From IMG/VR virus record IMGVR_UViG_3300007963_000006, positions 4,526 to 68,525 of that record: 64,000 bases of DNA. The stretch is one strand, 5' to 3'. Made by a program: the position numbers and the translations under genes. Shown in pieces: positions 11,070 to 29,991 of the stretch. The stretch's first letter is position 1. Every line of letters starts with the position of its first letter. Under the pieces are notes generated by a model. The model saw only the letters and a list, made by a program, of their open reading frames with translations, searched no databases and was not told the origin of the DNA. This DNA comes from a virus.

Positions 11070-12557
11070 ATGGCCTCACCGAATTTCTCACACATCGCCG
11101 CCTGTTGCAGACAGGCATACAATGGCGTGAGAAGGCCACACATCGTGTTGGAGAGCGCATTCGCGCTGTCACCGAAGGAAATACCCTCCCTAATCGAATT
11201 CTTCTATGAGGACGGTTCCATAGGCGAGCGTCTGTCCGATGAGGACTTGCGCGAAATCTTTTACAATCTCACCGATCTATATCCTGAAGAGGTTGAGAGC
11301 GAGCCTGACTTGATTCAGATTCTCTCCAATCTCTCCGAGGAGATTGAAACGACAGTGAACTTCAAATTTGTTCACGCAAACATGAAACAAATGTTTAGCG
11401 AATCCACAATTTTCACGACCCACACTTCTCAAGAAGTGGATAACAAGGTGCGCTCACTGCTCATGCGAACCCTGCTGAAGCGTGTGACGGCGCGAGATGC
11501 CTATTGGCTCATCCTCCGCCTCACGCGCAAAGCAAATCCATTCAAGCACCGCGACGTAGTGAATGCACTGGCGATTCATCACAAAACACTGAAGGCGCGT
11601 GTGAGGAAAGAGGCACTGTTCACGCCGCTTTCTCAATTGGCACGGAAAATGCCCGAAGAATTGGTGGGTGTTCCTACCATCGGTGCGCCACTGCTCATTC
11701 CACTACCCGCTCGCACATACGCGCCCCACTTCTTCATCGACAATTACCTTGAGATCATTCGTGGTGAACGACTGGTGATGCACAAGGGCGAGGATTTCAT
11801 TTCATTTCACGATCCAAATGGGGTCGAAGTGGAAGTCGAACCCCATTTAATCGTGGGTGACTTTTTCGACGGCAACCCCTTGCCTCACGGCATCTATCTT
11901 ATCGAGCGGGTGCCGAAGGCCGAATATCCACTGAAAATTGTGGACGTGTTATATTCTCACGATTCCATCCAAGATAAGCCGCTTCAAGATAGACGACTAT
12001 GGTTGGAGGAAAATTTACCTGATATGTTCATCAAGCCAATGGAATGGGTGCAAAACGTCGCACAATTGAAGGCGAAAGCACCCAAGAATGGCTTGTGCTT
12101 CATCCACAATGCACGCGCCCCCGTGTCATACACCAACAGCCGCGAAGAGGTCGTCCGATTCAGCACGAAAGCCACAGGGGATATATTCAGACTGATTGGC
12201 GGCGTATGGCGTCACGATGCAGGACGCGGGCTGACGCTCAATTCATGGCGTGTAGCCGCCCGTGATGGAATCGACGGCTACTATGAAGTGGGCGACATTC
12301 CATGCGGGAACACCGATAGATCGTCCGATTTGGAAAAGACACTGGCGAAAATGACTGTCAAGGGACAGGCTGTTGAGGGCGAATTGCTCTTGATGGAGAA
12401 CCCGACATTCGTTGATGTGCAGGTTCACTTCGCAGAATACGGCGAACGAGGAATTATCATTCAAGGTTCGATTGAAGGCATTGTCAATAACGCGGGCATA
12501 TCCGATGTTGTGCCTGTTGAGGAAGTCGAATGGCTGATGGGTGGTGAGGAGGAATGA
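11070..12557 (+). CDS. ATP-dependent DNA ligase homolog, catalytic motifs degenerate
   Basis: DBD-like DAYWLILRL..VVNALA; motif I LEIIRGER; IIIa IVDVLY..PLQDRRLWLE; OB-like DIFRLIGGVW...SWRVAARD...EVG. Confidence 0.7.
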   Translation: MASPNFSHIAACCRQAYNGVRRPHIVLESAFALSPKEIPSLIEFFYEDGSIGERLSDEDLREIFYNLTDLYPEEVESEPDLIQILSNLSEEIETTVNFKFVHANMKQMFSESTIFTTHTSQEVDNKVRSLLMRTLLKRVTARDAYWLILRLTRKANPFKHRDVVNALAIHHKTLKARVRKEALFTPLSQLARKMPEELVGVPTIGAPLLIPLPARTYAPHFFIDNYLEIIRGERLVMHKGEDFISFHDPNGVEVEVEPHLIVGDFFDGNPLPHGIYLIERVPKAEYPLKIVDVLYSHDSIQDKPLQDRRLWLEENLPDMFIKPMEWVQNVAQLKAKAPKNGLCFIHNARAPVSYTNSREEVVRFSTKATGDIFRLIGGVWRHDAGRGLTLNSWRVAARDGIDGYYEVGDIPCGNTDRSSDLEKTLAKMTVKGQAVEGELLLMENPTFVDVQVHFAEYGERGIIIQGSIEGIVNNAGISDVVPVEEVEWLMGGEEE

Positions 12558-13648
12558 CTGGTCTTTCTGTTGATGGTGTCACTTTACATCTCGGTGATTG
12601 TTTAGAGAAGTTACGCGAAATGGAGGACGAAATAATTGATTCTTGCATCACTTCACCGCCATACTACGGCCTCCGAAATTATGAAAATGAAGGTCGTTGG
12701 TGGGGTGGTGATATTGATTGCGAGCATGAAAAAGGTGCAATTATCACACATCAACGCCGATCTAATGACGGAGGTTCAGCAGGGAGAAAACAGACCACAA
12801 ACAAGGGGGCAGGAAAACGCGATATGCCTTCCGAGCATTGTTATTGTGTGAAGTGTGAGGCATGGTTCGGGCAATTGGGCTTAGAACCTTCTCCTGAAAT
12901 GTTTGTTGCTAATCTTGTTGAGATATTCAGGGAAGTAAAACGGGTATTGAAGCCAACAGGCACCTTTTGGTTGAATATCGGTGATACTTACTGGGGCGGC
13001 AAAGGAAAGAGCGGCCATAACAATGCTGATTATCAAAGCAAAAGAAATGATAAGCACTTGCAGAAATCGCACCATAATGCAATAGGTGGAAAGGGACTTA
13101 CTCGCCCACAGGACGGCAAACACGCTACGATCAAACCGAAAGATTTGATGATGTTACCACACCGATTAGCGATAGCCCTTCAGGATGATGGATGGTGGGT
13201 AAGAAATGACATCGTTTGGGCGAAGCCCAACCCTATGCCTGAATCCGTGAAGGACAGATGCGGAAGGGCACATGAATACATCTTCCTTCTCACCAAGTCG
13301 AAGAAGTATTTTTTTGACCACGAAGCCATCAAAGAGCCGACCACAGATGGCAAAGGGAAACGCACAAGACGTGATGTTTGGACCGTTCCTGTGAAGCCAT
13401 ACAAAGGGGCGCATTTTGCTACGTTCCCCCCTGAATTGATTGAGCCTTGCATTCTTGCAGGTTGTCCTGAAGGGGGTGTCATTCTCGATCCATTTGCGGG
13501 AAGTGGGACCGCAGCACTTGTCGCCTTGAAATTTGGTCGGCGTGCTATACTGTGCGAATTGAATTCTGAATACGTTCCATTGATAGAAAAAAGGCTCACG
13601 GGCGTTACACAGCGAAGTAAGTCACTGGAACAAATTACGGATTGGTGA
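12554..13648 (+). CDS. DNA amino-methyltransferase, beta class (probably N4-cytosine)
   Basis: TSPPY, LNIGD, IVWAKPNPMPES, HFATFP, LDPFAGSGT. Confidence 0.93.
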   Translation: MTGLSVDGVTLHLGDCLEKLREMEDEIIDSCITSPPYYGLRNYENEGRWWGGDIDCEHEKGAIITHQRRSNDGGSAGRKQTTNKGAGKRDMPSEHCYCVKCEAWFGQLGLEPSPEMFVANLVEIFREVKRVLKPTGTFWLNIGDTYWGGKGKSGHNNADYQSKRNDKHLQKSHHNAIGGKGLTRPQDGKHATIKPKDLMMLPHRLAIALQDDGWWVRNDIVWAKPNPMPESVKDRCGRAHEYIFLLTKSKKYFFDHEAIKEPTTDGKGKRTRRDVWTVPVKPYKGAHFATFPPELIEPCILAGCPEGGVILDPFAGSGTAALVALKFGRRAILCELNSEYVPLIEKRLTGVTQRSKSLEQITDW

Positions 13649-13652
13649 TTAA

Positions 13653-13907
13653 ATGACTGATGAAGAACGCATTCCGCCGTGGGACCATCCCCTCGCCTTT
13701 GGTGTCAAACGAACCAAAGAATTCAATGGGCGCAATTGCGTTGGTTGTGGCCGCTTCCGCCGAGGCATTCGTCCGTCAGGAACGATGTGCGACAATTGCC
13801 GCAAGGTGCGCTACTGGCCTTCGTGGAGGCCACGCGAAGAAGGAAAGGCAAGTGGTTGGTATGGATACGACCACAACGGGTTTTGGATATGGGAGGCACC
13901 GGAATGA
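13653..13907 (+). CDS. Small Zn-finger protein
   Basis: CVGC...CDNC; GGTGA SD. Confidence 0.65.
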   Translation: MTDEERIPPWDHPLAFGVKRTKEFNGRNCVGCGRFRRGIRPSGTMCDNCRKVRYWPSWRPREEGKASGWYGYDHNGFWIWEAPE

Positions 13908-14056: not shown

Positions 14057-14421
14057 TGGAGAAGGACGACTTGACACTACTACTCATCGCGCAGAACACG
14101 CGCATGAGGATTGCCTGTCGCTTGACGAGCAAGAATCAGACTGGGTATCAAATCCGTGCTGAATGCGATCTATTTGGCCGCAAAGCAATTCCCAATGACG
14201 TTCGACAATTCCTCACGAAACATGGACTGCCCACGCAGAACCGATATACGAAGCCGGAACACCTAACGCGGTTGTTGAGATTGCTCACACCGTATGCAGA
14301 ATTCACAAAAGAGCCTCAAGGATTAAGGGCTGTGTCCTCCCTCGTCGGACGCCTTGTGACGCTACGAAAGCATGAGGACGTAATTTCAATTTTGGAGGTA
14401 TTGGATAATGGCACTGTTTGA
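14056..14421 (+). CDS. Hypothetical protein, possible degenerate LAGLIDADG-fold DNA-binding protein
   Basis: GYQIRAECDL and LLRLLTPY resemble LAGLIDADG elements; no acidic catalytic motif. Confidence 0.4.
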   Translation: MEKDDLTLLLIAQNTRMRIACRLTSKNQTGYQIRAECDLFGRKAIPNDVRQFLTKHGLPTQNRYTKPEHLTRLLRLLTPYAEFTKEPQGLRAVSSLVGRLVTLRKHEDVISILEVLDNGTV

Positions 14422-14992
14422 GGATGAAGAAGAGGCAGAAATGCCCGATCCGTTCTTGGTGTGCCCCAATGCTGACGGGACGCCCCCCGGCATAGAGGAT
14501 GAAAAACAACGAATCTTCAATGTGATGTTAATGCACACGCGAGAATGGGACCGGCTGCGGGTGGCGAGGGCACTGCATAAATCAGATACGAATAGAAGAT
14601 ATTTGGTGACTGTCATGCAATTGACATACCCCGGAAATAACGTCATTGATTTCGCAATCCGTGAGTTAATCCAAAAGGTGCCTGATGATTTGCTTTGCAG
14701 CATTCTTGCATTCGCTCACAATGGATCGGGCGGGCGTGTCGAAATCAAATTCCCTGAAAAGCGACAGGGTAACTTACCCCGCACTTTGCTCCGTGCATTT
14801 GGATTGCGAGGAAGTGAGGGCGCATGGGCACACCGCCTATTGGAGAATGAATCCTTCATGCGGCGGGTCGCAAGTCGCATTCACAAGAAAGATTTCAAAT
14901 GGCTCATCCATGATAAAGCAACGCTATACAATAAACATTCTAAAGAGGACACCGAGAGCCTATTGGCTATGGAACAGGGGGCGAATGTATGA
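14408..14992 (+). CDS. Hypothetical protein upstream of clamp loader
   Basis: GGAGGT SD; ORF track. Confidence 0.75.
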   Translation: MALFEDEEEAEMPDPFLVCPNADGTPPGIEDEKQRIFNVMLMHTREWDRLRVARALHKSDTNRRYLVTVMQLTYPGNNVIDFAIRELIQKVPDDLLCSILAFAHNGSGGRVEIKFPEKRQGNLPRTLLRAFGLRGSEGAWAHRLLENESFMRRVASRIHKKDFKWLIHDKATLYNKHSKEDTESLLAMEQGANV

Positions 14993-15002
14993 CACCACCA
15001 GT

Positions 15003-15049: not shown

Positions 15050-16036
15050 ATGAAAGTCCAAATTCCTGATGAACCCGAAGAACAGCCTGTTCAATTGTGG
15101 CTCAAGTATCGTCCTGATACACTACAACACATGGTCGGGCTTGACAATCTAAAGAAAGATGCTTCAGGGTGGTTCGTGGCGGGCACACTTCGCATAAGCG
15201 GCATCGTCATATATGGGCCATCCGGCACAGGCAAGAGTAGTGGCGCACGCGCTCTTGCGAGGGATGCTCTCGGAGATCGATTCACCGAAAACTACCATGA
15301 ATTCAATGGTTCGGATGATAGAGGAATTCAATTTGTGCGTGAACGATTGAAGCCATTGGCCGAGCAAAAGGCCGTTGGTTCTAAATTCAAGATTATTTTT
15401 GTGGATGAGGCAGATGGTTTCACCCGCGATACGCAGGACGCACTGCGCTCAATCATCGAAAAAACAGGCACACACACAATGTGGATACTGGCCTGTAACT
15501 CAATTGGAAAGATTCGACCTGCGCTGCGTTCACGTTTGCCCGCATATTCCTTCCCTGCTCTTACTGTTGATGAGGCCGACGCATTCCTGTCTGTGGTCAT
15601 CCATGAAGAGGGATTCCCAAGTGAATGGATTGCTTCTGTTCCAAATCTAATTCGTAAGCATCGCGGTGACTTGAGGGCTTGCCTCAAGACCTTGCAGTTA
15701 TGTGATCCAACAGATGATTTGGCGTTGGATGAAGTGATGCACGATGATTTGATGGCGATTGACGATCTATACTGTGCGGTCCTCAAAAATCGGTGGGATG
15801 AAACAATGGGACTCGCCGCGAAGGTCGAAAGACTGGGTGTGAGCCGCGAGGAAATCATTGACGCATTCCACCGTGCTATTACTGACGCATACGAAAACAA
15901 TGAGTCAGATGCTAAACATACCCTAACCCACCTGTGCGTCCTCGGACTATGGGCCGCACGTTCCCCTGACTGGACCGCAGGGACTCTCCTATTCCTCCAT
16001 GCACTTATTGGAGATTACAGAAAAAGAGGAATGTAA
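15050..16036 (+). CDS. rfcS: Replication factor C small subunit (clamp loader)
   Basis: WLKYRP, GPSGTGKS, EFNGSDDRGI, DEAD, LRSR, GDLR. Confidence 0.93.
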   Translation: MKVQIPDEPEEQPVQLWLKYRPDTLQHMVGLDNLKKDASGWFVAGTLRISGIVIYGPSGTGKSSGARALARDALGDRFTENYHEFNGSDDRGIQFVRERLKPLAEQKAVGSKFKIIFVDEADGFTRDTQDALRSIIEKTGTHTMWILACNSIGKIRPALRSRLPAYSFPALTVDEADAFLSVVIHEEGFPSEWIASVPNLIRKHRGDLRACLKTLQLCDPTDDLALDEVMHDDLMAIDDLYCAVLKNRWDETMGLAAKVERLGVSREEIIDAFHRAITDAYENNESDAKHTLTHLCVLGLWAARSPDWTAGTLLFLHALIGDYRKRGM

Positions 16037-16037
16037 A

Positions 16038-17375
16038 ATGAATGAAGCAAGAATGATAGGAAACGAATGTTTGGATGAAGCAGCGAAGATACTCGGCATT
16101 GGCCGAGAAGAGGCAGAAGCCTCCTTCGGTGCATGGATGGCCGAAATCTTCCCCGAAATGTGGGATGATGCCGGACAAAAGGCAGACGGTTTGATTGATG
16201 ATGACTACAACCACTACGCAGACCAATTCGTGTCAGCGAGCGCACCACGCGGTGGTGGCGGTGGCGGTGGATCGGGCGAAGAATGGGTCGGTATGGTTGT
16301 CGGCTTCACCAAGCGTCTTGATTTGATGACCCGAAAGCGTGAGATGGCTATTGATGTCGCTACGGCTGACATTGGAACAGCAATCAAGAATGGCTTCACT
16401 TACAACGGCAAGCACACTGGGATTGGTCGGGCGCACACGCAGAATGATGTGTGGCGCGTTGAGCATTCCGATGGGCTGTATGTGTCGAACGAGGCAGCAG
16501 ACACTTCTCCAAATTGGGTTATCCCAATCAATGAGAAATTGTCGATTGCTATGCTGAAGCCTGACAAGACGCCTCAAATGGCATACTCTCTCAAGTCCAT
16601 GTGGATTTTTCACGGCAACCTGAAGGACAAATTGTTGGACGAAGGCCCAATGACTATCCTGCTTGAAGGTGCGTGGGATGCAGCCGAAATGAATTGGAAG
16701 ATGTTCACACCAATTACCCTGAAGGGCAAATTTGACCCTGATGGTTGGAACGACAGTGGCCCAACCCTGACTGTGGGCAACACCAACGTAACCTATGGTT
16801 TGGATTGGGTGTCTGATAATCACAAGGAGGCTGTTGAGAAATTCTTCGATCCAACCCAATACTTGACTACGATGGCTATGTGCCCGTTGTCAGATTTACT
16901 CTCCCATCACTTCGATGGTCGCAAAGAATCCTATACGGACAGAAACGGCAATCAACGCTATGACGGCCCAATCACCTGTGTTGTCGGCAACGTGCAGAAT
17001 ATCAATCACGAAGGCCGTGAGAAGCAGTGGGATCCAACGGGACGTGACTACTGGTTGTCTATCAGCAATCAATCACTACGCCGTGAGAATCCAAACGCTG
17101 CTATCGGCATTGGTGTTAGCGGTCCTTTACACGATGACCACAACGGCATGAATGTTCTGCTACGCGGAGAATGGCTTCCATTCACCAACGGCTCTCGCAT
17201 CTATGTCGTGGGTCGCACTGATTCATACACCAACCAAGAAGGTGATGACATCGTGAAGATTGAGGCTCAAGGTATCTATGCGGTGCCGAAGAAGTCTATT
17301 CCTGCAAAGCGTCCGAGCGAGGAAAGCAACGATCTCGGTAACTTGAGCGGATTCGGTATGGATGGTGACAATTGA
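16038..17375 (+). CDS. Putative OB-fold ssDNA-binding (RPA-like) protein
   Basis: C-terminal OB-like GSRIYVVGR...IEAQGIY, acidic tail, position within the replisome cluster. Confidence 0.5.
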   Translation: MNEARMIGNECLDEAAKILGIGREEAEASFGAWMAEIFPEMWDDAGQKADGLIDDDYNHYADQFVSASAPRGGGGGGGSGEEWVGMVVGFTKRLDLMTRKREMAIDVATADIGTAIKNGFTYNGKHTGIGRAHTQNDVWRVEHSDGLYVSNEAADTSPNWVIPINEKLSIAMLKPDKTPQMAYSLKSMWIFHGNLKDKLLDEGPMTILLEGAWDAAEMNWKMFTPITLKGKFDPDGWNDSGPTLTVGNTNVTYGLDWVSDNHKEAVEKFFDPTQYLTTMAMCPLSDLLSHHFDGRKESYTDRNGNQRYDGPITCVVGNVQNINHEGREKQWDPTGRDYWLSISNQSLRRENPNAAIGIGVSGPLHDDHNGMNVLLRGEWLPFTNGSRIYVVGRTDSYTNQEGDDIVKIEAQGIYAVPKKSIPAKRPSEESNDLGNLSGFGMDGDN

Positions 17376-18634
17376 TGGCAGGAACAGGCTTCCTTGACTC
17401 TTTCACGCCCAAGAAGGGCAATTACGAGCCTTCTAAGCCAACGAAGGTGGCTGCAAAGCCTTCCAAGAAGGCGAAGGAGGAAAAGAAGCCTGTCAAGGCG
17501 AAGAAGGCCGAGAAGGTCGTCAAGAAGCCGGAACAGCCGGTGTTGAAGGTATCTTCCCCTCCTCCTCGACCAATCGAGGTTTTGAATGAAGGCGAGGAGA
17601 AGGCATTCCCTGACAGTCGCACGGTCATTGTATCCGATGATGCCCCACCACGAATGGTGCCTGAACCTGAATTCAATGATGCAGTCATGGCGTTTAATCC
17701 ATCGATCCAACGAATGCTGCAATCAGCGAGAAATGCACCTGTGATTGATCAAGAATACATTCTTTGCGGCATATACGGCCCTCCAAAGTCCGGTAAGACT
17801 GGAATTTGTATGGATAGTCTATCCGAGGAGGACATTGAAAATGGTGCTGAAGTCATTCACGTTGATTTCGATATGGGCGGTGCGTCCACACGCGCTGCTC
17901 ACCATGCAGATAAGGCCCATCACATCTTGGTTCTCAATCCGTGGATCGTTCAATATGGGGAGAGTCGTGAAACATACGACTTCCCTGCTACATTCCAACA
18001 GACCATTGACATTCTCAAAGGGGCTGTGGCTCAAGCCGAATTCCAAGTCGAATACCGACAGAAGAACGGCACTATGCCTCCAACCTATCTCAAAACCGTT
18101 ATCTTTGACGGCTGCGACCAATGGCAACATATCTGTGAAACCCTGATGAAGATTGAGGATTTGGAATTGGGTCACGATGGGATCGATGCAGCGGCATTCC
18201 TTCGTCAGCGCGAAAAGGGCGGCGAGAAGAAGAAGTCCGTAAGTCGCTTCAATTGGAACCTGCGAAAGATTCGCTATCAATTAGCCTTCCATCTTCTCCG
18301 TGAATTGTGCCGACTGGGTGTGCATTGTTATCCAATCACGCACACAAAGTCTGACTACGATTCAAGCGGTAACGAGATTCGCGGTAGTGCTTCACCTGCA
18401 TGGCTCAAGGATACCGAGGGCCAATTGCAGCAATTGATTTGCACTGAAATTGAAGATGAGCGCGATGACAGCGGGGAATTGACAGGCATTTCGCGTGCCT
18501 ATGGTCGCCTCCTATGGCGTCGAACGAGTCTGAACACGCCGGAGCGTTGGGTCATCTTTGAGCGCAACCCTGACGGTGGCGAATGGTTCGGGACACCGGG
18601 CATGGCTCAAGGCACCTTTGGGGTGATTGAATGA
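17375..18634 (+). CDS. RecA-superfamily ATPase (Sak4/AAA_24-like recombinase)
   Basis: GIYGPPKSGKT, HVDFD, VIFDG, ITH; Lys/Pro-rich N-terminus. Confidence 0.75.
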   Translation: MAGTGFLDSFTPKKGNYEPSKPTKVAAKPSKKAKEEKKPVKAKKAEKVVKKPEQPVLKVSSPPPRPIEVLNEGEEKAFPDSRTVIVSDDAPPRMVPEPEFNDAVMAFNPSIQRMLQSARNAPVIDQEYILCGIYGPPKSGKTGICMDSLSEEDIENGAEVIHVDFDMGGASTRAAHHADKAHHILVLNPWIVQYGESRETYDFPATFQQTIDILKGAVAQAEFQVEYRQKNGTMPPTYLKTVIFDGCDQWQHICETLMKIEDLELGHDGIDAAAFLRQREKGGEKKKSVSRFNWNLRKIRYQLAFHLLRELCRLGVHCYPITHTKSDYDSSGNEIRGSASPAWLKDTEGQLQQLICTEIEDERDDSGELTGISRAYGRLLWRRTSLNTPERWVIFERNPDGGEWFGTPGMAQGTFGVIE

Positions 18635-19425
18635 CCGGCTGTCGCATTTCATACGGTCGATTGCGCCATTTCCTCAAGGGATTCAATATGGACGATCTAA
18701 TCCTCAACATCACTGAAGAGGGCATAGAGGCCGCAGGGACCGAGCAGAAGATGTTTTACATCCACAAGTGGACTCGCTATCAAGCAAATGAGGGTGAATG
18801 TATCGAAGCAGGTGACATTCCAATCGGTCAATTGGCTACATTCATTTCATTGATTGGTGAATGTGGGCAGGGAGGCGACGAAATCGAATTGTCCTATACG
18901 GACGATGTTATCACCGTGTCCGGCCCCCAATCCACCTTCAGCATTCCTTCTGTGACCAACCCTGCATCCCAAGCAGGTGTTGAAGTCATCAGCGGCTTCA
19001 TTGAAGCGGCTGAAGCAGACGACTGGAAAACCTTCGGTCAAGGTGGTGTGTTCGATTATCACTTGGAATTCGACGCTGAAGCATTTCAGCAATTACGCAA
19101 TACAGGAAAAGCCATTCAATCCGGCTCTCTCTATTGCGTGGAGGTTGGTGACGAAACACTGACCCTTAGTGTGAAGCGCGACAGTGTGCGCGTGGATCGT
19201 TCGATAGAACACAACAGCACATTCGATTCAGACGAACCCGTGATTAACTGGTTCGGTCAATGGTTAATGGACGCTCTCAAGGCTATGCCGGGTGTGGGAG
19301 AAGTCCATGTTCATGGAGGGAATCACGCACCCTTCCTCATTCGCCAAGAAGCGACTGGGACGGACACTGGATATGGTCAAACATTGGTCGTATCACCCCG
19401 GCAAGAGTCGGGGGCGAATAAGTGA
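18631..19425 (+). CDS. pcna: PCNA-like sliding clamp
   Basis: 264 aa, acidic; C-terminal WLMDALKA..EVHVHGGNHAPF...VVSPRQE like the PCNA end LAPR; sits between RFC and PolB. Confidence 0.75.
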   Translation: MTGCRISYGRLRHFLKGFNMDDLILNITEEGIEAAGTEQKMFYIHKWTRYQANEGECIEAGDIPIGQLATFISLIGECGQGGDEIELSYTDDVITVSGPQSTFSIPSVTNPASQAGVEVISGFIEAAEADDWKTFGQGGVFDYHLEFDAEAFQQLRNTGKAIQSGSLYCVEVGDETLTLSVKRDSVRVDRSIEHNSTFDSDEPVINWFGQWLMDALKAMPGVGEVHVHGGNHAPFLIRQEATGTDTGYGQTLVVSPRQESGANK

Positions 19426-21815
19426 TTATTGACGCATTCGATCCGGCTGACGGAGAAGGAAAGCACATCTATGTGCGATACAGGAATGATGACGGCGAAG
19501 TGATGGAACGCATCGTTGATGACTTCCGACCTTACTTCTTCGTTGAGAATCTGAATACTGAACGCCTGTCGGCGTTGTATGATGATAATTTCGATGGTTG
19601 GGGCACTGGCGGTCTTGCCGAGGCCAAAGATGGTCGAGAATTGCTACAAATCTATGCCCCTATGCCTGAAGATGTCAAGCGCATGAGGAATATGGCGGAG
19701 GAAACATGGGAGGCCGATATGCACTTCCCCGATAGATTCGCCATTGACACCTTCACAGAACCGAGCGGCGAACAGCCAATGCCTGATTGGTTCTCCAACA
19801 CCGTTCGTGCCGGTGGCTTCGATATGGAATGGAATGAGGATGGCGCAATCACCGCTATGGGTTACACCACAGACGGTGAGCAGGTTCACCAATGGTCTTG
19901 GCATCCAAATGCTTGGAATGAACTCATTACAATGGATGCAAAAGGAATTGAGTCGAATATGTATTCATCCTATTTCACCAATGAAAAGGAGATGCTTGAG
20001 GATTTTGCGAACGCATTCAACCTTCTTGATCCGGACGTTATCACCACATGGTCCGGCAATCGTGCTGACTGGCCGAAATTGTATGAACGATTCAAGCATC
20101 ACGATTTGAGCATGGATTGGATTTCCCCCATCGCATCCGTCAGCCATTCACCACCAATGAAGCACCTTCCGCGCAGTGGCTACTACGAGGACGGAACACA
20201 GGTCATACTGGGCCGGATGACCATTGACTTGGCTGATCGAAATCATGGCTTTGAGCGTGTGTGGAAAGATAGCGGCAAAGGGCAATTGGGTGATCGGCGT
20301 CTTGGTTCTGTGCTGAAAGAGGCATTCCCGAACAACCCTGAATGGCATAAGATTGATTTTGAGAATGACCCTGAATTGCTTGACGAGGAGGGGAATTGCA
20401 TTGTGGACGGCCACCATGACCTGTGGCTCAATCACTTTGACAAATTCATTGACTATCACAGGCAGGACATAATCGGCACGGATCGACTGGACCGAGAGTA
20501 TCACGTCACCCGCTTCTTCATGGCGTTGCAGCAGGTCTGCGGCGTGTCCTTCTCATCTGTATTCACCGTGAGCCGCTTCGCAAGAGGATTGTTGCGACGG
20601 CGGGCATGGTGGAAAGCACCCACAGGCAACAAGAAGCAGAAGCACGAATCATACGGAGGGGGCTACATTCCCAATGCGGTGGGTGGTCGTCACGATATGG
20701 TGGCTGTATTCGACTTCAGGGCGCACTATGCCGCCATCCAAGAGGGGCACAACATCAGTCCTGAAACGCTACGCGGGAAGGACGGGGAATGTTGGGTGCC
20801 GATGACAGACAATATCTTGGCGTTGGAGAACGGCACCTTTTGGGAACAGTCCGAAATCGGTGTTCTCCCTGAACTGCAAATTGATTTGGCTGACGCAAGG
20901 AACGCAGCGAAGCAGGAAATGAAAAAACACGACCCCAAGAGCAGTGAATACGCCGGATTTAACACCCTTCAATTGGCCTTCAAGCGGGCGGCTGCGTCAG
21001 TGTATGGCCTCATGGGACACACAGGGCACGGCGAGAGCGATCTAACTGTTGCCTCCACTATCACCTATGTTGGCCGTGAATTGCTGAAACGCTTGATGGA
21101 AATATGTGAGGAGATGGGCTACACCCCATTGGCCGCTCACACCGACAGCGCATACATCGCCATTGGTGACGCTGATGGTCACGAAATTGCCGAGCGTTTA
21201 ACACAAACCATACAGGATGAATGGAACACCGATAAATTCATTGTCGAATTTGAAAAACTCATGCTGCATTGGGTGGCCCACGATGAGGTCAAGAATCGAA
21301 ACTTCGGGTGGGTCATTTGGCCCAAAGAAGGCTTGCACTGCACCGGCTTTGAATTGAAGAAGTCCAATGCCGCTGAAATCACGAAGCGCATTCAGGAAAC
21401 GGCATTCATCAGTATGTGCAAGGAGGGTGCAAGTGAGGACGACATACGCGAATTGGTGAATTCGTGGATCGCATCTGTGCGAACCACAGTCAAACGCGAA
21501 GCATTGGTGATGCGTTCACGCTTGGGCAAAAAGCCGGAGGCATACGGGAACAAGGGAGGATTTCAAGGTGCAGCGAAACGCTACAATGACACCAACCCCC
21601 GTGAACCGTTTGTGATAAGAGATGGGGTGCCTCACGTCTATTCGACAAAGGGCATCGAAGCATTCAGAACGTCCGAGGAATTAGAGAAAATAAACTTGGA
21701 CTACACAACGATAATACAGAAGCAGATTATCGCACCAGTTAGCCTCATCTTTGAGGCGATGGGATGGAAAGAACCCAACGCTGATGGTGCGGTGCCGCAG
21801 GACTGGTGGAATTGA
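19422..21815 (+). CDS. polB: Family B DNA polymerase
   Basis: Exo I FDME, Exo II GNRADW, Exo III YHRQD; motif A DFRAHY, B KRAAASVYG, C HTDS. Confidence 0.92.
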   Translation: MIIDAFDPADGEGKHIYVRYRNDDGEVMERIVDDFRPYFFVENLNTERLSALYDDNFDGWGTGGLAEAKDGRELLQIYAPMPEDVKRMRNMAEETWEADMHFPDRFAIDTFTEPSGEQPMPDWFSNTVRAGGFDMEWNEDGAITAMGYTTDGEQVHQWSWHPNAWNELITMDAKGIESNMYSSYFTNEKEMLEDFANAFNLLDPDVITTWSGNRADWPKLYERFKHHDLSMDWISPIASVSHSPPMKHLPRSGYYEDGTQVILGRMTIDLADRNHGFERVWKDSGKGQLGDRRLGSVLKEAFPNNPEWHKIDFENDPELLDEEGNCIVDGHHDLWLNHFDKFIDYHRQDIIGTDRLDREYHVTRFFMALQQVCGVSFSSVFTVSRFARGLLRRRAWWKAPTGNKKQKHESYGGGYIPNAVGGRHDMVAVFDFRAHYAAIQEGHNISPETLRGKDGECWVPMTDNILALENGTFWEQSEIGVLPELQIDLADARNAAKQEMKKHDPKSSEYAGFNTLQLAFKRAAASVYGLMGHTGHGESDLTVASTITYVGRELLKRLMEICEEMGYTPLAAHTDSAYIAIGDADGHEIAERLTQTIQDEWNTDKFIVEFEKLMLHWVAHDEVKNRNFGWVIWPKEGLHCTGFELKKSNAAEITKRIQETAFISMCKEGASEDDIRELVNSWIASVRTTVKREALVMRSRLGKKPEAYGNKGGFQGAAKRYNDTNPREPFVIRDGVPHVYSTKGIEAFRTSEELEKINLDYTTIIQKQIIAPVSLIFEAMGWKEPNADGAVPQDWWN

Positions 21816-22774
21816 TGATTACACATCGGGCACCACGTCCAATCCCAGTGAAGGGGCACGACGATTTATTCTCCTGCTATCACTGGCACCCCGAAATGCC
21901 GGATAATGTCATTCTCCGTATGAGTAAATCGTCGCTGCTGTCTGACTTCGGGTTTTGCCAACAGCAGGGCTTCATCAAGCGCATTGTGGGTATGAAGGAA
22001 CCACAGAACGACAATATGCTTCGGGGAACCAATGTTCACGATTCAGTGGAATTATTCTATGACCGCGTGGATATTGAAGAAGCGAAGGCAGCAGAAGATA
22101 TGCTCAAACTTGACAGGTATTTCCAACGCTGTTTTCCCAAACCACCTGAAATCCGTTCCGCTCAAGACTCATTCTATTTGGATGAAGATTTGCACCTTGA
22201 CAGGTGGCGAAAGGTGGAAGTGGAGAGATTCTTAGGTTCCGATCCAGAAAACTTCCTCCCGACTGGAAATGAATTGGTGGTTGATCATATCATGGATATT
22301 GAAGTCGATGGTGTGTCACAACCAGTGCATTTCACGGGCATTATTGACCGTATATTCACCAACCCTGACGGCTCACTACACGTTCACGAATTGAAAACCG
22401 GACTGTGGAAGGACACCAAATACAAGTATGAATCCATGCGAAAGGAAATGGCCTTCTATGTATGGATGCTACGCAAGATGGATGCTTCAACACCAGTCAC
22501 ACACTGGGGTTGGGACCACACGAAAGGGGTCAAGGGCACCGATAGCGAGGATGCCCAAGTATTCCGTTACGTTGAACCAGTGCGCGTCAAGGAAATTGGC
22601 CTGATGTTGGCTGATGTGCATAATCTCATTCGCAATTATCGTCGCTACAAGGGCGACGGTGACGGGTCCATGTTCCCTTTGATTTCTGCCTCTATGCAAT
22701 CACGCCTTTGCGATCCGTGGTGTGCCCTCAAGGAATTCTGCCCGCGCTACGCCAACGTCTTGGAGGACTACTGA
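21815..22774 (+). CDS. Cas4/RecB-like PD-(D/E)XK exonuclease with Fe-S cysteines
   Basis: N-terminal FCQQQ, GTNVH, GIIDRI, ELKTG, C-terminal CDPWCALKEFCP. Confidence 0.85.
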   Translation: MITHRAPRPIPVKGHDDLFSCYHWHPEMPDNVILRMSKSSLLSDFGFCQQQGFIKRIVGMKEPQNDNMLRGTNVHDSVELFYDRVDIEEAKAAEDMLKLDRYFQRCFPKPPEIRSAQDSFYLDEDLHLDRWRKVEVERFLGSDPENFLPTGNELVVDHIMDIEVDGVSQPVHFTGIIDRIFTNPDGSLHVHELKTGLWKDTKYKYESMRKEMAFYVWMLRKMDASTPVTHWGWDHTKGVKGTDSEDAQVFRYVEPVRVKEIGLMLADVHNLIRNYRRYKGDGDGSMFPLISASMQSRLCDPWCALKEFCPRYANVLEDY

Positions 22775-24270
22775 TGAGTTACGAATTGGTTCAGGGCGAT
22801 TGCCTCAAGGTCATGGAGAGGGTGGAGGACGACAGCGTGGATTCTATCGTCACCGACCCCCCGTATGGATTGACCCAAAACAAGCGGGGTGGCAGTGGGG
22901 CAGCAAGCGCAAGTAATGAAACGCCATACGGCAGGGCAAGAATTGGAACGGGGAATGGGGCAGGTGGCTTCATGGGTATGAAATGGGATTCCGGCGTCCC
23001 TCCTGTTGAGATATGGGAAGAGGCATACCGAGTCTTGAAGCCGGGGGGTTATCTGCTTGCTTTTGGTGGTTCACGGACCTATCACCGAATGGTGGTGAAC
23101 ATTGAGGATGCGGGCTTTGAAATCCGTGACCAAATCATGTGGCTGTATGGGTCGGGCTTTCCAAAATCACATTCCGTCAGTAAGGCCATCGACAAACTCG
23201 GTGGCGATTCTGCCGTCCTTGTTGAAATGGCGCAAGCACTGGAACAGGCTCGCCTTCAAAGAGGCATGACAATCAAGGAATGTGATGACAAATTCTGCAA
23301 CGGTTCAACAAATTGGAATTGGATTGAAGGGAAGCGAGATAGAATCACGCAGCCATCCGAGGAACAAATGAAATTGATTGCTGAAGAATGGTCTGAAATG
23401 GAACCAATCTTTGACGCCTTCAATGTCAAGGGTAACGTGGTGGGTTCAATTACACATTCCAGATCGGGCGGGAAGGATTTCGCAAAACAAGTCGGCTCTC
23501 AAGCCGAGAAGCGTGCGGAAATTGTTTTTGATCACGGCACTGACCCCGCTAAACAATGGGAAGGTTGGGGAACGGCCCTCAAGCCCGCCCATGAGCCTAT
23601 CGTAGTGGCTCGCAAGCCCTTCAAGGGCACAGTGGCCGAGAACGTGCTTGAACACGGCACAGGGGCCATGAACATTGATGGGTGCCGTATTCCATCCGAT
23701 GAAGAAGTGAAAACTTCAATAGGGGCAGGTTTTGGAGGAACAAGTCTGTTTGAGGGAGGAACAAAAGAAAGAAAAGAGAGTGAAGTGCGACAAGAGCGTT
23801 GGCCCGCTAACGTCATTCTTGACGAAGAGGCCGGTGCTATGCTTGGCGAAGAATCACGCTTCTTCTATTGTCCGAAGGCGAGCAAGTCCGAGCGCAACAA
23901 GGGTTGTGAGGAATTGGAACCACAAAAAATGGGTCGTAATCAATCATCACTTGATGGTGGGAAAATACTCACGGGTTCAGGGAATGAGAGAAGTAACGAG
24001 AAACAAAACCACCACCCCACCGTCAAGCCGGTGGATTTGATGAAATATCTATGCCGTCTTGTGACACCACCCGGCGGTGTCGTTCTCGATCCATTCATGG
24101 GAAGTGGAACAACGGGCATAGCCGCCTGTGTCGAGGGCTTCAATTTCATAGGCATTGAGCGTGAAGAGGACTACATCGAAATCGCTCGCAATCGAATTGA
24201 AACATGGGTTGAGGAAAAGGAAGAACAAGTGCGTGAGGAACGGGCACAGACAAGCCTCTTTGATTGGTGA
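22774..24270 (+). CDS. DNA amino-methyltransferase, beta class, with inserted XRE-type HTH
   Basis: TDPPY, WLYGSGFPK, HPTVKP, LDPFMGSGTTG; insert LEQARLQRGMTIKE...WIEG. Confidence 0.92.
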   Translation: MSYELVQGDCLKVMERVEDDSVDSIVTDPPYGLTQNKRGGSGAASASNETPYGRARIGTGNGAGGFMGMKWDSGVPPVEIWEEAYRVLKPGGYLLAFGGSRTYHRMVVNIEDAGFEIRDQIMWLYGSGFPKSHSVSKAIDKLGGDSAVLVEMAQALEQARLQRGMTIKECDDKFCNGSTNWNWIEGKRDRITQPSEEQMKLIAEEWSEMEPIFDAFNVKGNVVGSITHSRSGGKDFAKQVGSQAEKRAEIVFDHGTDPAKQWEGWGTALKPAHEPIVVARKPFKGTVAENVLEHGTGAMNIDGCRIPSDEEVKTSIGAGFGGTSLFEGGTKERKESEVRQERWPANVILDEEAGAMLGEESRFFYCPKASKSERNKGCEELEPQKMGRNQSSLDGGKILTGSGNERSNEKQNHHPTVKPVDLMKYLCRLVTPPGGVVLDPFMGSGTTGIAACVEGFNFIGIEREEDYIEIARNRIETWVEEKEEQVREERAQTSLFDW

Positions 24271-24276
24271 TGAAAC

Positions 24277-25338
24277 ATGGCGCACATATTCCGACATTTC
24301 CCGCGTGAAGTGGATATGCGAAAGAGGAAAGTGGTGCATAACATGGACGAATTGCAGCATTACGTCAAGGCCACCAACGGTGCTGATGACCTGACAACCA
24401 CCGTCTATGGCTTCCAACAATTGAAGCCAAAAGGCAATCGTGGTGAGTATTCCACAGCCATTGTGCCCCACTTCGTCATTGATATGGACTACGAACGGGC
24501 TAAAACACCCTCTAACACGGCGCGAGAGGCAGGGAATCGTTGTCTGCGGGAAGTATTGGCCCTGCACCATCATTTGCTCTCTAACGGGTGGAAACACGCC
24601 ATGTGGTTCACAGGCGGTGGCGTCCACATTTGGGTCAATCTCGATCAGACGCACTATCCCGAGGAAAGCCTATCCGATTTATTCGTCACTGGACGGCGTA
24701 TGATTGACGGTTGGGTCAAGCAGTGGGATTTATCCACGCTCGATCCAGTCGTGTCATTCCGCCCTGACCGTCACATTCGCATTCCTAACACATACAATTT
24801 CAAGCGTGGCCTATGGGGTATGCCGCTTCAAACCAGTGACCTTGAGGGTGATTGGGAGGAAATCTTGTCACGGGCTGTCGAGCCGCACGGGGGCATGAAT
24901 CTCTATGGGCAACACGGGTTACATTTGGACGTGAAGAAGCGTGACCCTGCAACCCCCTTTGAGGCCGAGAAGGTGGACGTGGATATGAAGCGCATTGGGT
25001 CTATTTCTGTGCTGCCTTGCTTGGCTGCTGCGGCCTGTGAGGAGGGTGGCAATCCTCCACATGAGGCACGCATCTATCTCACCATGTTCCTTCAGGACCG
25101 GCTTCGGTCTTTCGCACGTCCCCCTCAATCATCACAAACGAGCAACGATGGTATCGTAGCCTCGATCTGTAACTTCATCAAGGATTTGAAATGGTCTGAC
25201 TACAATGAGGAGATAACTCATCAAAATGTTAAGCACAGTGTTGGGAGTCACTACATGACCCCTTCTTGTCGCACGCTTTACGCGAAGGGATATTGCATCG
25301 GTAAATGTCCTTTCTATGACGGCACAGGGGGTGTCTGA
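24277..25338 (+). CDS. Archaeo-eukaryotic primase, PriS-PriL fusion
   Basis: IDMD, FTGGGVH, RIPNTYN; then LPC...HEAR...PSC...CIGKC (PriL Fe-S-like domain). Confidence 0.88.
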   Translation: MAHIFRHFPREVDMRKRKVVHNMDELQHYVKATNGADDLTTTVYGFQQLKPKGNRGEYSTAIVPHFVIDMDYERAKTPSNTAREAGNRCLREVLALHHHLLSNGWKHAMWFTGGGVHIWVNLDQTHYPEESLSDLFVTGRRMIDGWVKQWDLSTLDPVVSFRPDRHIRIPNTYNFKRGLWGMPLQTSDLEGDWEEILSRAVEPHGGMNLYGQHGLHLDVKKRDPATPFEAEKVDVDMKRIGSISVLPCLAAAACEEGGNPPHEARIYLTMFLQDRLRSFARPPQSSQTSNDGIVASICNFIKDLKWSDYNEEITHQNVKHSVGSHYMTPSCRTLYAKGYCIGKCPFYDGTGGV

Positions 25339-25419: not shown

Positions 25420-25737
25420 ATGACGGATGAATTGGATGAAATACGCAAGAAGAAGATGGCTGAAATCAGCGATAAGATGAAGCAAGTCGAGAAGGATGTT
25501 GAAGAGGTAAGAGCCATGCAGAATGAATTCACATGGGCTGACTTTGGAATGGATGAACCGATGTGGGGCTTCCGCGAGAGCGAGGATATGCCCGGTGCTT
25601 TCGATGTTTGCCAACAAGGTGAAACCGTTGCTTTAACGGGCGACCCCCGATGGGCCATGCTTGTGACCGATCTGCTGAACCGAGCCAAATTGGAAGAACT
25701 GATTGTCAATTCAAAGGAGGGTGAAAAGGATGATTGA
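25420..25737 (+). CDS. Hypothetical protein
   Basis: GGTGA SD; helical N-terminus DELDEIRKKKMAEI. Confidence 0.75.
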   Translation: MTDELDEIRKKKMAEISDKMKQVEKDVEEVRAMQNEFTWADFGMDEPMWGFRESEDMPGAFDVCQQGETVALTGDPRWAMLVTDLLNRAKLEELIVNSKEGEKDD

Positions 25738-26437
25738 GAAGGTGCTTTACATCGACAACCGAGAGCGGTCAGGGCTTGAGGAGGCTGTCAAAAGACACGC
25801 CACCAAACAGAAAATCAAGTGGGCTGTCAATCAAAATCTCATCACCGACTACTGCTACGGAACACTTGGGATCGAAGCCAAATCAATGGCTGATTACATT
25901 CAATCGCTACAAAGCGGCCACCTGCAACACCAGTTAGAGAATATGGACGACAATTTCCAACGCATGGTTCTCATCATTCATGGTCGAATCGACAAGTATG
26001 TGAGCAATATGCGGAAGCGTGGAGGGCGCACACCTTACGCACGCATAGAAGCCATGTTCATTGGTTCGTTGGCCCGCTTCGACGTTGATTTCGATATGAC
26101 CATCATGCACTTTGAAACCGCGTCGGCGGCGGCACGGTGGATTGTAACACGCTGCAAGAAGGATGGGACCATCGGAACAGTGAATACCTATCGCACCTTA
26201 AGACGCACTTCCAGTGAGGACGTTCGCATTGATGGTTTGAGAGCCATTGGTTGCAGCGAGGCCATCGCCAAGCGACTGTTGGATCGCTTCGGCTCAATCG
26301 CTGAAATTAGCAGTGCGCCTGTGAAGGAAATGATGGCTCTTGACGGCATCGGAAAAATCAGGGCAAAGCGAATTTCTGAAGCCCTCAACAGTGAAGAAGC
26401 CGTTGTGAAAGAGAAGGTCAAAATGAAATCAGCCTAA
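25730..26437 (+). CDS. ERCC4/XPF-family nuclease with HhH motifs
   Basis: IDNRE, DY, IEAKSMAD, QL..M; HhH-like GCSEAIA and GIGKIRA. Confidence 0.88.
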   Translation: MIEKVLYIDNRERSGLEEAVKRHATKQKIKWAVNQNLITDYCYGTLGIEAKSMADYIQSLQSGHLQHQLENMDDNFQRMVLIIHGRIDKYVSNMRKRGGRTPYARIEAMFIGSLARFDVDFDMTIMHFETASAAARWIVTRCKKDGTIGTVNTYRTLRRTSSEDVRIDGLRAIGCSEAIAKRLLDRFGSIAEISSAPVKEMMALDGIGKIRAKRISEALNSEEAVVKEKVKMKSA

Positions 26438-26488
26438 ATGATTATATGGCAAATGCGAGCAGCCCAAATTCCCGCCGGAGAGAGAGAT

Positions 26489-28015: not shown

Positions 28016-28570
28016 ATGAAAGGTATCAGTGTAGTATTCGACACTCATTTCGATGAAGGTTGGAGAAGCCGGATGGAAATTATCTTGATTGCTACATGGG
28101 ATGGAAAAGAAGGGGCGCAGATTTACACGGATGAGTCCTTGACGCAAAAGATGATTGGTTGTCCGGTTCACGATCTATCGGATTTTATTTGGGAAGAACA
28201 AGCCCCGTTGGTTGGTCACAACCTACACGGTAATTTCAAAAACGAATGCTTTGACTTGTTAATTGCCGTCAAAGAGGCCAGTGGCCCTGTCCTTCAGAAT
28301 GAGGGCAAGCGTTACGAGTTACACAATCTTGCACGTTGGAACCGTTGCCAAACGGTCCCTGTCGAAATGTATTCCAAATGGCGACGTGGGGCAGCATGGA
28401 TACGAGGGCAACGCATCAAGGTTGCACGTTGGGCGATTGAGGATGCGATGATGTGTCACGATCTCTATGTGAAGGTCAGGAAAAAGGGACGGGTTCGATT
28501 CTTAGACACCAAAACAGGAAAGAAGGTATTTGCCGAGGTTTCGTGGGGAAAGAAGGAGGAGGAGGAATAA
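28016..28570 (+). CDS. RNase H-like (DnaQ/YprB-type) exonuclease homolog, degenerate
   Basis: VFDTH, LVGHNL, FDLL, AIEDAMMCHDLY. Confidence 0.5.
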   Translation: MKGISVVFDTHFDEGWRSRMEIILIATWDGKEGAQIYTDESLTQKMIGCPVHDLSDFIWEEQAPLVGHNLHGNFKNECFDLLIAVKEASGPVLQNEGKRYELHNLARWNRCQTVPVEMYSKWRRGAAWIRGQRIKVARWAIEDAMMCHDLYVKVRKKGRVRFLDTKTGKKVFAEVSWGKKEEEE

Positions 28571-28716
28571 TGCCGTATCAATGGATGGGTTGCCCTTCAG
28601 GTTGCTACAAAATTTGGTCGATGGCACGACGACCACAATGTCGGATATGTTGGAAGCGGCTGAAAGCACTGTCCCCTGCCCCACCGCCCCCGGCAGGATT
28701 ATCCGAAGGAGCGTGA
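28570..28716 (+). CDS. Small Zn-finger protein
   Basis: CPSGC...CRIC; TAATG overlap. Confidence 0.55.
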   Translation: MPYQWMGCPSGCYKIWSMARRPQCRICWKRLKALSPAPPPPAGLSEGA

Positions 28717-28722
28717 TGCGAA

Positions 28723-29991
28723 ATGAATGTGTGGGGACATAGGAAAGCGTCTGACGCCGCTTGGAACGTGATGAAATCATTCATGTATCAAGGCAAGCAG
28801 GGTGACTTAGAGGACATTATGCCCCTCTTACAAGGCACCATGGATCGTTACGATACATGGAGCGGTAGCCCCCTAACTGGTAATGCAAAAACGAAATTGA
28901 AGCCAGTCTATCGTGTGCCTTCAAGTGCCGGTGCAAAGAAGCCAATGAAGCAAATGGAATTGGCAGGAATGCCCGGTGCAAAATTCAGTAGCCAACAGGA
29001 AGCATTGTTGAATCGCATACCCGGATTCACCCGACCTGAAAAGGGCGGCATTCCAACATTCATTAACTGGTGGGGCGGTAAATCGGGCCTCAAGAATGTG
29101 TTCCGGCAGATGTATAAGCCGTTCCAAGATACCCACAAGCCCGCAGAAATGTTCGGCGGCAGTGGTTCAATGCTCACTGGTTTGAATGCCGGAAAGGGCA
29201 TTTACAATGAAATGAATCCTGATTTGACCAACGCCATGCGTATGGCTCAATTGGGCCTCCAAGTGCCTGATTTCGGACCCAACACGAAGGAAGTATTGGC
29301 TGACATTACACAACGACTCAACGCCCTGCGATACAAGCGCGACATCGAGCAGGAGGAAATGACGCCGGAGGAAAATGAATTGATGGCTCAATTATTCATT
29401 TCGGCCAATAGCAGGGCATTTCAGGGGAACATGGGATACAAACAGAATGATGAATGGCACACTGGCGCAGGGCGTATGAAGCCCGGTTTGAGGACTGTTC
29501 GACCGGATCGCGGTTCACCCGCTATTCCATTCGATTTGCGCCCGTGGGCTGATCGAATGAAAAATTGGGAAGTCCATGAAGGAAAGATGCAAGATTTGGC
29601 AGAATTGCTCGGTCCTGAAGTATTCATGTATCTTGACCCACCTTATTGGGGTCGGACATTCGACTATACAGATAACCCCAATGAAGCAGGTCGTGTGTTA
29701 GATGACCTACAACGTGAAACAATTGATATTGGGGCCGAGCATGAAGGCCCAGTCGCATATTCAAACTATCTTCTCGATCCAGATACGAGAGAACCATACC
29801 ATGAAGCAATTGAATATCTGTTGAATCAGGGTTACGACATTACGCCGTGGGCGCGAAATATCAAAACAGGAAAAACAGGCGGAAAGAATGTAGTGGAAAT
29901 GTTGGCTACTCGCAATATGCCTGAATGGGAAGGGATGAAAGAAAAACTTCCAAAGGTCAGCGCAGCACAACAAAGCCTCTTGGAATTCTAA
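28723..29991 (+). CDS. Dam-like (D12 class, alpha) DNA adenine methyltransferase
   Basis: NWWGGK, EMFGGSGS, YNEMNPDL, YLDPPY. Confidence 0.88.
   Translation: MNVWGHRKASDAAWNVMKSFMYQGKQGDLEDIMPLLQGTMDRYDTWSGSPLTGNAKTKLKPVYRVPSSAGAKKPMKQMELAGMPGAKFSSQQEALLNRIPGFTRPEKGGIPTFINWWGGKSGLKNVFRQMYKPFQDTHKPAEMFGGSGSMLTGLNAGKGIYNEMNPDLTNAMRMAQLGLQVPDFGPNTKEVLADITQRLNALRYKRDIEQEEMTPEENELMAQLFISANSRAFQGNMGYKQNDEWHTGAGRMKPGLRTVRPDRGSPAIPFDLRPWADRMKNWEVHEGKMQDLAELLGPEVFMYLDPPYWGRTFDYTDNPNEAGRVLDDLQRETIDIGAEHEGPVAYSNYLLDPDTREPYHEAIEYLLNQGYDITPWARNIKTGKTGGKNVVEMLATRNMPEWEGMKEKLPKVSAAQQSLLEF

Follow-up and report, generated by a model that had tools for sequence, protein, structure and literature searches.

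PIP-like C-terminal tails on the DNA methyltransferases of an uncultured tailed virus with a PCNA-fold sliding clamp

DNA methyltransferases of an uncultured tailed virus end in short, motif-like peptides, and the same type of ending recurs on nearly every methyltransferase of related viruses that encode the same divergent sliding clamp. The window analysed here is a stretch of 64,000 nucleotides, bases 4526-68525 of the linear, 68,525-base IMG/VR virus record IMGVR_UViG_3300007963_000006, for which CheckV estimates a completeness of 65%. It encodes three methyltransferases, referred to here as MT1, MT2, and MT3, together with a clamp of predicted PCNA fold and an RFC-like clamp loader. We consider it likely that the tails are truncated peptides of the PCNA-interacting peptide (PIP) type, through which these orphan enzymes would be held at the PCNA-fold clamp of the virus on nascent DNA.

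The three enzymes are encoded on one strand within the replication module of the virus, with stop and start codons overlapping or abutting. MT1 (12554-13648, plus strand) is a beta-class N4/N6 DNA methyltransferase with the motif TSPPYY (PF01555, 173.8 bits), MT2 (22774-24270, plus strand) a beta-class N6 DNA methyltransferase with TDPPYG (PF01555, 119.7 bits), and MT3 (28723-29991, plus strand) a D12-class (Dam-like, alpha) N6-adenine methyltransferase with LDPPYW (PF02086, 37.8 bits, cut-off 22, aligned over positions 1-191 of the 253-position profile). Both PF01555 scores exceed the cut-off of 26.7, and MT1 and MT2 carry SPPY/DPPY near the N-terminus and DPF(A/M)GSGT near the C-terminus. 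All three open reading frames (ORFs) translate without internal stops, the start of MT2 at ATG 22774 agrees with the N-termini of its homologues, and the 68,525-base record holds no other PF01555, PF02086, or PF00145 gene. MT2 ends ...RAQTSLFDW, with the tail QTSLFDW (24247-24267, plus strand; Q-x-x-L-x-x-W) at the extreme C-terminus, MT3 ends ...AAQQSLLEF, with QQSLLEF in the same place (29968-29988, plus strand; Q-x-x-L-x-x-F), and MT1 ends ...KSLEQITDW, with LEQITDW as its tail (13625-13645, plus strand). A sequence-only reading of this DNA had reported these endings, had described the MT1 tail as a partial match lacking the Q, and had assigned the enzymes to the classes beta SPPY, beta DPPY, and alpha Dam-like; translation and Pfam (PF01555, PF01555, PF02086) agree with it on all three counts, and the F is also absent from the MT1 tail. 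The end pattern Q..[LIMV]..[FYW] is found in 2/70 ORFs called in the record, where residue composition predicts 0.04 (Poisson P ~9e-4); both of these ORFs belong to the three methyltransferases (P ~1e-3), and MT1, having neither Q nor F, falls outside the pattern.

The archaeal PIP motif is given as QXXhXXaa in the available part of PMC4929162. Position 1 is Gln in MT2 and MT3 and L in MT1 (2/3), and position 4, where the motif takes Leu, Ile, or Met, holds L in MT2, L in MT3, and I in MT1 (3/3). Two consecutive aromatics are expected at positions 7 and 8, where the tails have a single W, F, and W, respectively, at position 7; both aromatics are present in some relatives, such as QKTFDDWW and STQMNISDWF. 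MT2 and MT3 match the consensus Q-x-x-L-x-x-aromatic as had been claimed earlier, and have one terminal aromatic rather than the two of the canonical PIP box. Since the second aromatic is missing, we refer to the tails as PIP-like, and not as PIP boxes.

Although MT1 departs furthest from the motif, its last 12 residues, QRSKSLEQITDW, align position for position with those of its relatives, GRSKEQRTLFDW, which carry the tail QRTLFDW. By this alignment, the MT1 tail is a decayed copy of the relatives' tail that retains the I at position 4 and the DW. The first ~300 residues of MT1 share 74-77% identity with a marine clade that has no tail and ends RYFDNRKV, its last ~45 residues (ILCELN...RSK...DW) resemble the tail-bearing clade, and the protein looks like a mosaic at the sequence level. 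No close relative of the tail-less MT1 homologue P0133 was found in viral contigs, where the best match had 50% identity.

Evidence for a link between tails and clamp comes from related viruses. A 5-row alignment of the clamp led to 30 viral loci encoding the clamp family, taken with up to 10 kb on each side, and the 527 ORFs called in them were sorted by their best match to the ORFs of this virus. Three tail patterns were scored: a terminal Q..h..a(a); Q..h-aromatic/Leu no more than 3 residues from the end; and Q..h followed by at most 4 residues and a terminal aromatic. They are present in 26/27 methyltransferase ORFs versus 7/500 other ORFs or, counting unique last-40-residue sequences, in 16/17 methyltransferases versus 5/313 others (Fisher P 5e-22). 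All families contribute, namely the MT1 lineage (10/10) and MT2 lineage (9/9) of PF01555, the D12 enzymes (2/2), and the C5 enzymes of PF00145 (5/5). Of the ORFs without a counterpart in this virus, 5/179 show a tail pattern, and a Pfam scan that took in all 140 distinct unmatched ORFs identified all five as C5 cytosine methyltransferases (PF00145). Endings of the D12 relatives from clamp-encoding viruses are LQQRLF, QQRTLF, and MQRRLF, and database homologues of MT3 end LNKSLFDF, LQKSLFQYQS, and similar. When whole related records were searched (for PF01555 in 4, for PF02086 and PF00145 in 5), further D12 and C5 genes beyond the first windows were found to end QQRTLF, MQRRLF, and IQTRLF, and a sub-threshold C5-like ORF to end PGRLF. 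Within the MT2 family, alignment A3, the rows of which were chosen for their tails, has an invariant Q492 and an F496 conserved in at least 90% of sequences, with a linker that varies. That the tails had been gained separately, as proposed earlier, is borne out across the D12, C5, and PF01555 folds, and is less secure for MT1 and MT2, which both belong to PF01555 and could share an ancestral tail.

Methyltransferases from outside this lineage provide the control. When MT2 was compared with cultured-phage records by tblastn, the best 40 matches extended no further than query residue 471-475. Six of these homologues, encoded by phages of Mycobacterium, Proteus, Klebsiella, and Arthrobacter, were fetched and none has a Q-type tail pattern (0/6); 5/6 end directly after the core helix and the Arthrobacter phage enzyme ends EPVFDFGGLV. 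Because the phage matches stop at the core and are without Q-type tails, the tails are, judged by these homologues, add-ons to the catalytic domain. In IMG/VR, we compared 80 MT2-family loci (L060-L139) and 64 MT1-family loci (L140-L203), none of which has the clamp family within 10 kb. Here, tail patterns are present in 21/70 unique MT2-family tails versus 14/1080 other ORFs, and in 4/55 unique MT1-family tails versus 6/1395 other ORFs, a sample in which a GDAPLF/GMF segment inflates any 'LF'-based pattern. An equal frequency of tails in clamp-encoding and clamp-less loci had been named beforehand as an outcome that would speak against clamp docking; the frequencies are not equal, and the tails are much rarer without the clamp family. 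Three of the 80 loci, which have archaeal-virus replication genes like those of the window (L087, L110, and L122), carry PIP-type tails (STQMNISDWF, QKSLFDGW, and QNTLERFM). Many other methyltransferases from clamp-less loci have Q-L-x-L-F-like ends (PLQLKLF, PQLTLFP, DEQLNLFG, KQQLSLF), and these loci are without homologues of this virus's replication genes. A GDAPLF or GMF (ELGMFK) segment also recurs just past the last helix in other methyltransferases of clamp-less loci. From their sequences, the Q-L-x-L-F-like ends and GDAPLF/ELGMFK could represent either motifs for the beta clamp or an element specific to the family.

In a metagenome protein database, the pattern Q..h..a falls within the final 12 residues of 21/119 MT2 homologues (0.2 expected from internal rates) and of 13/119 MT1 homologues (0.3 expected), which corresponds to a C-terminal versus internal enrichment of ~100-fold for MT2 relatives and ~40-fold for MT1 relatives. 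Homologues of MT3 end in an [ST/x]L..F-like or related aromatic sequence in 8/8 cases by eye, and in 1/8 by the strict pattern. Five cultured haloarchaeal virus records (HVTV-1, HCTV-1, HRTV-14, HF1, and HRTV-2) are devoid of PF01555, PF00145, and PCNA_N.

The clamp itself is recognized by its predicted structure. ORF 18631-19425 (plus strand) matches no Pfam family at E <= 0.01, PCNA_N and PCNA_C included, and no PHROG; there is no PCNA among its PDB sequence matches at E <= 10 and no tblastn match in 50,697 phage records. A single-protein search of viral contigs returned no relatives, and an exhaustive profile-free search of representatives returned 16. An AlphaFold2 model based on an alignment of 11 of these 16 relatives reached a predicted local distance difference test (pLDDT) score of 89.7 and a predicted template modelling (pTM) score of 0.85. 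Its best Foldseek match is P. furiosus PCNA (1iz5_A, E 7e-15, TM ~0.66-0.72), and all 45 matches listed are PCNA entries, at 12-16% identity, among them the PCNA-peptide complexes 1isq (RFCL PIP box) and 3a2f (PolB). Given that a confident model matches PCNA structures only, ORF 18631-19425 is predicted to be a clamp with a two-domain PCNA fold that lies outside the PCNA sequence families. An RFC-like AAA+ clamp-loader subunit is encoded ~2.6 kb upstream (15050-16036, plus strand) and is supported by both Pfam (AAA, 55.3 bits; DNA_pol3_delta2, 28.1 bits at a cut-off of 27) and PHROG (phrog_168, 'clamp loader of DNA polymerase', E 2e-37). The notion that the virus encodes its own PCNA and RFC is borne out for the loader and for the PCNA fold, with the reservation that the clamp matches no PCNA sequence family.

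Immediately downstream, the stop codon of the clamp gene overlaps by 4 bases the start of a family B DNA polymerase gene (PolB; 19422-21815, plus strand; PF00136, 84.3 bits). The PF00136 domain ends at residue 778 of 797 and the protein terminates in the aromatic tail PQDWWN (21795-21812, plus strand); PolB relatives end PQEWW, KPLF, VSLW, or KSLW (23/23). In the style of PolB PQEWW, a PAPS-reductase-like enzyme of the relatives (PF01507, phrog_424) ends PKEWW or PKELW, and this protein is a possible further clamp-bound DNA-modification enzyme, as far as its ending indicates. Its gene lies just downstream of PolB in relatives (L002:6711-7670, L005:13087-14034, L006:13078-14034, and others) and is absent from the window. 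Counted over the relatives, one type of ending is shared by PolB, the canonical clamp client, and by practically all DNA-modifying enzymes of the lineage. Tails can be compared within genomes as well: those of L016 all end -LF and those of L030 all end -LW, and the D12 enzymes always end F.

As had been suggested together with the original observation, we co-folded a tail with the clamp. The MT2 tail (residues 459-498) and the clamp scored 0.45, versus 0.01 for the best of 3 controls, with no interface reported; the runs agree in 100% of contacts and the pLDDT of the partner is at least 67. The pass mark of the procedure is reached by 116/157 solved complexes and 2/215 mismatched pairs, and passing scores of <=0.60 were obtained for 18 of the 157 solved complexes and for both passing mismatches. 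The model thereby lends weak support to binding of the MT2 tail to the clamp. The full-length MT2 model has a mean pLDDT of 41.8.

Combining these observations, we propose that the tail motif Q-x-x-L-[FL]-[DE]-[WF], placed at the very end of the protein and separated from the catalytic domain by a short linker, would insert into the partner-binding pocket of the PCNA-fold clamp 18631-19425. The clamp would be loaded by the RFC-like ATPase 15050-16036 and would also be used by PolB through its own aromatic tail. Clamps left behind on new DNA could then concentrate the methyltransferases, so that viral DNA would be methylated as it is replicated. We infer that the tails bind a clamp, that this partner is viral, that methylation is timed to the fork, and that its purpose is anti-restriction. 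The sequence-only reading had already held that the virus loads its methylases on the sliding clamp; conserved and enriched tails on unrelated folds, the PolB tail, and the presence of clamp and loader favor this, and the decayed tail of MT1 does not.

Several points weigh against this proposal in addition to the missing second aromatic. MT1 is without Q and F, and no motif is present in the closest database homologues of MT1 (74-77% identity), which end RYFDNRKV. In the clamp-encoding loci, a single methyltransferase piece has no clamp-like tail, a 5'-cut ORF that joins the C-terminal portion of a PF01555 enzyme to an Mrr_cat restriction-endonuclease domain (L018:15-632) and ends GLLRWIE. We defined the tail patterns once the tails were already known, related sequences were counted so that P values overstate independence, and the loci 'without clamp' span +/-10 kb only, such that a clamp could lie elsewhere. 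The co-fold pass may reflect likeness to solved PCNA-PIP complexes, and author-made alignments were used. Tails are also not uniform within a genome, as D12 enzymes end in F and PolB in W, and we dropped co-variation between methyltransferase and PolB tails as evidence since it is partial only.

The first alternative concerns the partner, and other C-terminal peptides of the lineage are relevant here. Several other replication-module proteins have endings in which acidic residues follow an aromatic motif. The relatives of 8310-9041 (plus strand) end AFAQQ[DE]LFT.SEEE, and 15999-17375 (plus strand), a 458-aa protein following the RFC-like ATPase, has a DLGNLxGFG plus acidic end in 28/28 relatives. 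Possible roles of the latter are that of an SSB/RPA-like protein or that of a loader subunit bearing a docking tail; its Atlas fold leads are sub-threshold only (RPA/OB-like rows, TM below 0.5). Relatives of 9051-9845 (plus strand) end SFIDSF..., and the copy here TNFIDNWGA. Between MT1 and the clamp loader, 14408-14992 (plus strand) encodes a 194-aa protein that ends ESLLAMEQGANV and has no Pfam, PHROG, or Atlas assignment, with Atlas leads below threshold only; its 20 relatives have endings that resemble clamp motifs (ANQGALF, SLFDGDWGSKQ, NLSNWGLSQ), and the tail patterns are present in 7/20. Taken at face value, the endings of the replication-module proteins suggest that this lineage employs C-terminal peptides more broadly. 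No clamp-like motif is present in the XPF/Hef-like nuclease (ERCC4 plus HhH; 25703-26437, plus strand), which ends KEKVKMKSA, and its 20 relatives are alike; archaeal XPF is a PCNA client.

The methyltransferase tails might accordingly serve another hub or another purpose, such as an SSB/RPA-like protein, a polymerase or helicase, a C-terminal degradation signal, or a virion packaging signal. The aromatic-then-acidic ends of the 15999-17375 family (DLGNLxGFG..D/E) and the 8310-9041 family (QQ[DE]LFT.SEEE) speak for this idea, as they indicate that C-terminal peptides of at least two kinds are in use in the lineage, and so does the weakness of the co-fold support. However, the tail type is common to PolB, and the clamp is a known partner of archaeal PolB C-termini (3a2f; available part of PMC4929162). 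In addition, none of the structural-module ORFs called in the window has a strict Q-x-x-h-x-x-aromatic end. We therefore regard a different hub as unlikely.

A second alternative is that the tails dock on the PCNA of the host and that the viral clamp serves PolB only. In form, the tails are close to the archaeal PIP definition QXXhXXaa (as given in the accessible text of PMC4929162), and methyltransferases are readily exchanged among viruses and could retain a motif matched to the host. A host PCNA should exist: the major capsid protein (60473-61630, minus strand) matches 11 records of the phage collection, and 11/11 are archaeal tailed viruses (Haloarcula, Methanofastidiosa, Methanomassiliicoccales). 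The best tblastn matches of PolB in the same collection are haloarchaeal viruses, at ~23% identity. Because the capsid and PolB matches are archaeal viruses, the virus is treated here as an uncultured archaeal-type tailed virus, an assignment made by homology. However, 26/27 methyltransferase ORFs have the tails precisely where this clamp family is encoded, the tails are much rarer in other viral methyltransferases, and the viral PolB has a related tail, which makes docking on host PCNA an improbable account of the tails. Finally, it is very improbable that the tails are chance endings or functionless inherited passengers: the motifs are short and degenerate, and with MT1 and MT2 in one Pfam family some of the sharing could be ancestry, but the two end-anchored matches among the ORFs of the record (versus 0.04 expected) are both on methyltransferases, the motif is found on PF01555, D12, and C5 methyltransferases as well as on PolB and PAPS-reductase folds, Q492 and F496 are retained in alignment A3 (chosen for tails) while the linker varies, and the C-terminal enrichment among MT2 and MT1 relatives is ~100-fold and ~40-fold, respectively.

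If the tails of the viral methyltransferases dock as we propose, this would solve a kinetic problem, as methylation could keep pace with fast replication, which would otherwise leave unmarked sites exposed to host restriction. Every modification enzyme of the virus would be tethered to the sliding platform of the replisome, a counterpart of DNMT1-PCNA in a prokaryotic virus that would have arisen independently on several enzyme folds, and DNA methyltransferases would join the archaeal clamp clients. The terminal Q-x-x-L-F-(D/E)-W would become a sequence signature predicting clamp clients, and would help to define which peptides are preferred by a divergent family of viral PCNAs that escapes all sequence profiles.

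A broader possibility, which we put forward tentatively and hold to be somewhat doubtful, is that DNA-modifying enzymes of viruses and mobile elements dock on clamps as a general rule and across domains, each tail corresponding to the clamp being used. In archaeal-type viruses, all methyltransferases would bear PIP-type tails, as would other DNA-modification enzymes such as the PAPS-reductase-like protein, and bacteriophage methyltransferases would carry beta-clamp-type Q-L-x-L-F tails. The idea draws support from the clamp-less loci, in which tail patterns mark 21/70 MT2-family tails versus 14/1080 other ORFs and PIP-type tails appear exactly in L087, L110, and L122. Against it, part of the bacterial-side signal is the family-specific GDAPLF/GMF segment. 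If true, replication-coupled modification would be a widespread and unnoticed form of counter-defence.

The remaining genes of the window agree with a division into two halves. The plus-strand half up to 29991 is a replication module that also encodes an SF2 (superfamily 2) helicase (4820-6334, plus strand), a Sak4/RecA-like ATPase (17372-18634, plus strand), a PD-(D/E)XK exonuclease (21806-22774, plus strand), and a PriL-like protein (24277-25338, plus strand). We considered the nuclease 21806-22774 as a restriction partner of MT2, which is unlikely because its PHROG matches are exonucleases and its family is present in 23 related loci versus 9 for the MT2 family. The minus-strand half is the structural module of a tailed virus, with major capsid protein, prohead protease, and tape-measure protein. 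Two giant ORFs of the tail region, 32106-41963 (minus strand, 3285 aa) without a Pfam match and 41920-47142 (minus strand, 1740 aa) with one Laminin_G_3 (concanavalin-like) domain at residues 1436-1575, probably encode tail-fibre or host-recognition proteins. An identity as a magrovirus is unsupported, as Pfam finds no MCM among the 36 ORFs scanned and the available part of the magrovirus paper lists MCM in 26/26 genomes.

The closest functional parallel is DNMT1-PCNA, in which a PIP-type motif recruits a maintenance methyltransferase to newly replicated DNA (according to the accessible part of PMC9690074). Similar to DNMT1, the viral methyltransferases carry a putative clamp-binding peptide and methylation would follow replication. 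Unlike DNMT1, they are small, prokaryotic-type orphan enzymes of the N6/N4 type (C5 in relatives), their motif sits at the extreme C-terminus and has a single aromatic, the clamp is probably virus-encoded, and the likely purpose is protection of viral DNA rather than epigenetic inheritance. Archaeal clients with a C-terminal PIP include PolB, PolD, RFC, Fen1, RNase H2, NucS, and NreA; the client list in the available part of PMC4929162 contains no methyltransferase, and a putative adenine methyltransferase is mentioned there as co-purifying with NucS. According to the same portion of that paper, the archaeal PIP peptide sits on a flexible C-terminal end, and the viral proteins likewise carry a short Q-x-x-h-x-x-aromatic peptide on their C-terminal end. 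They differ in that the viral tails stop after one aromatic and in their clamp, which falls outside every PCNA sequence family. A full-text literature search, with subscription journals largely outside its reach, found no report of clamp-binding motifs on prokaryotic or viral methyltransferases.

The tails also recall the clamp motifs of bacteria. The consensus of the bacterial beta-clamp-binding motif is QL[SD]LF, and QTSLF of MT2 fits this pentapeptide except at position 2; the Q-L-x-L-F-like ends of MT2 relatives from clamp-less loci resemble it as well. In contrast to the three-domain beta clamp, however, the viral clamp has a two-domain PCNA fold in our model. Lastly, the polymerase of T4 and RB69 docks on the gp45 clamp through a C-terminal tail, and we know of no methyltransferase that uses this polymerase-tail route to the clamp in T4-like phages. 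Like T4 and RB69, the virus described here is a tailed virus with its own, putatively trimeric clamp, a loader, and a PolB with a putative docking tail; unlike in these phages, its clamp matches PCNA structures best.

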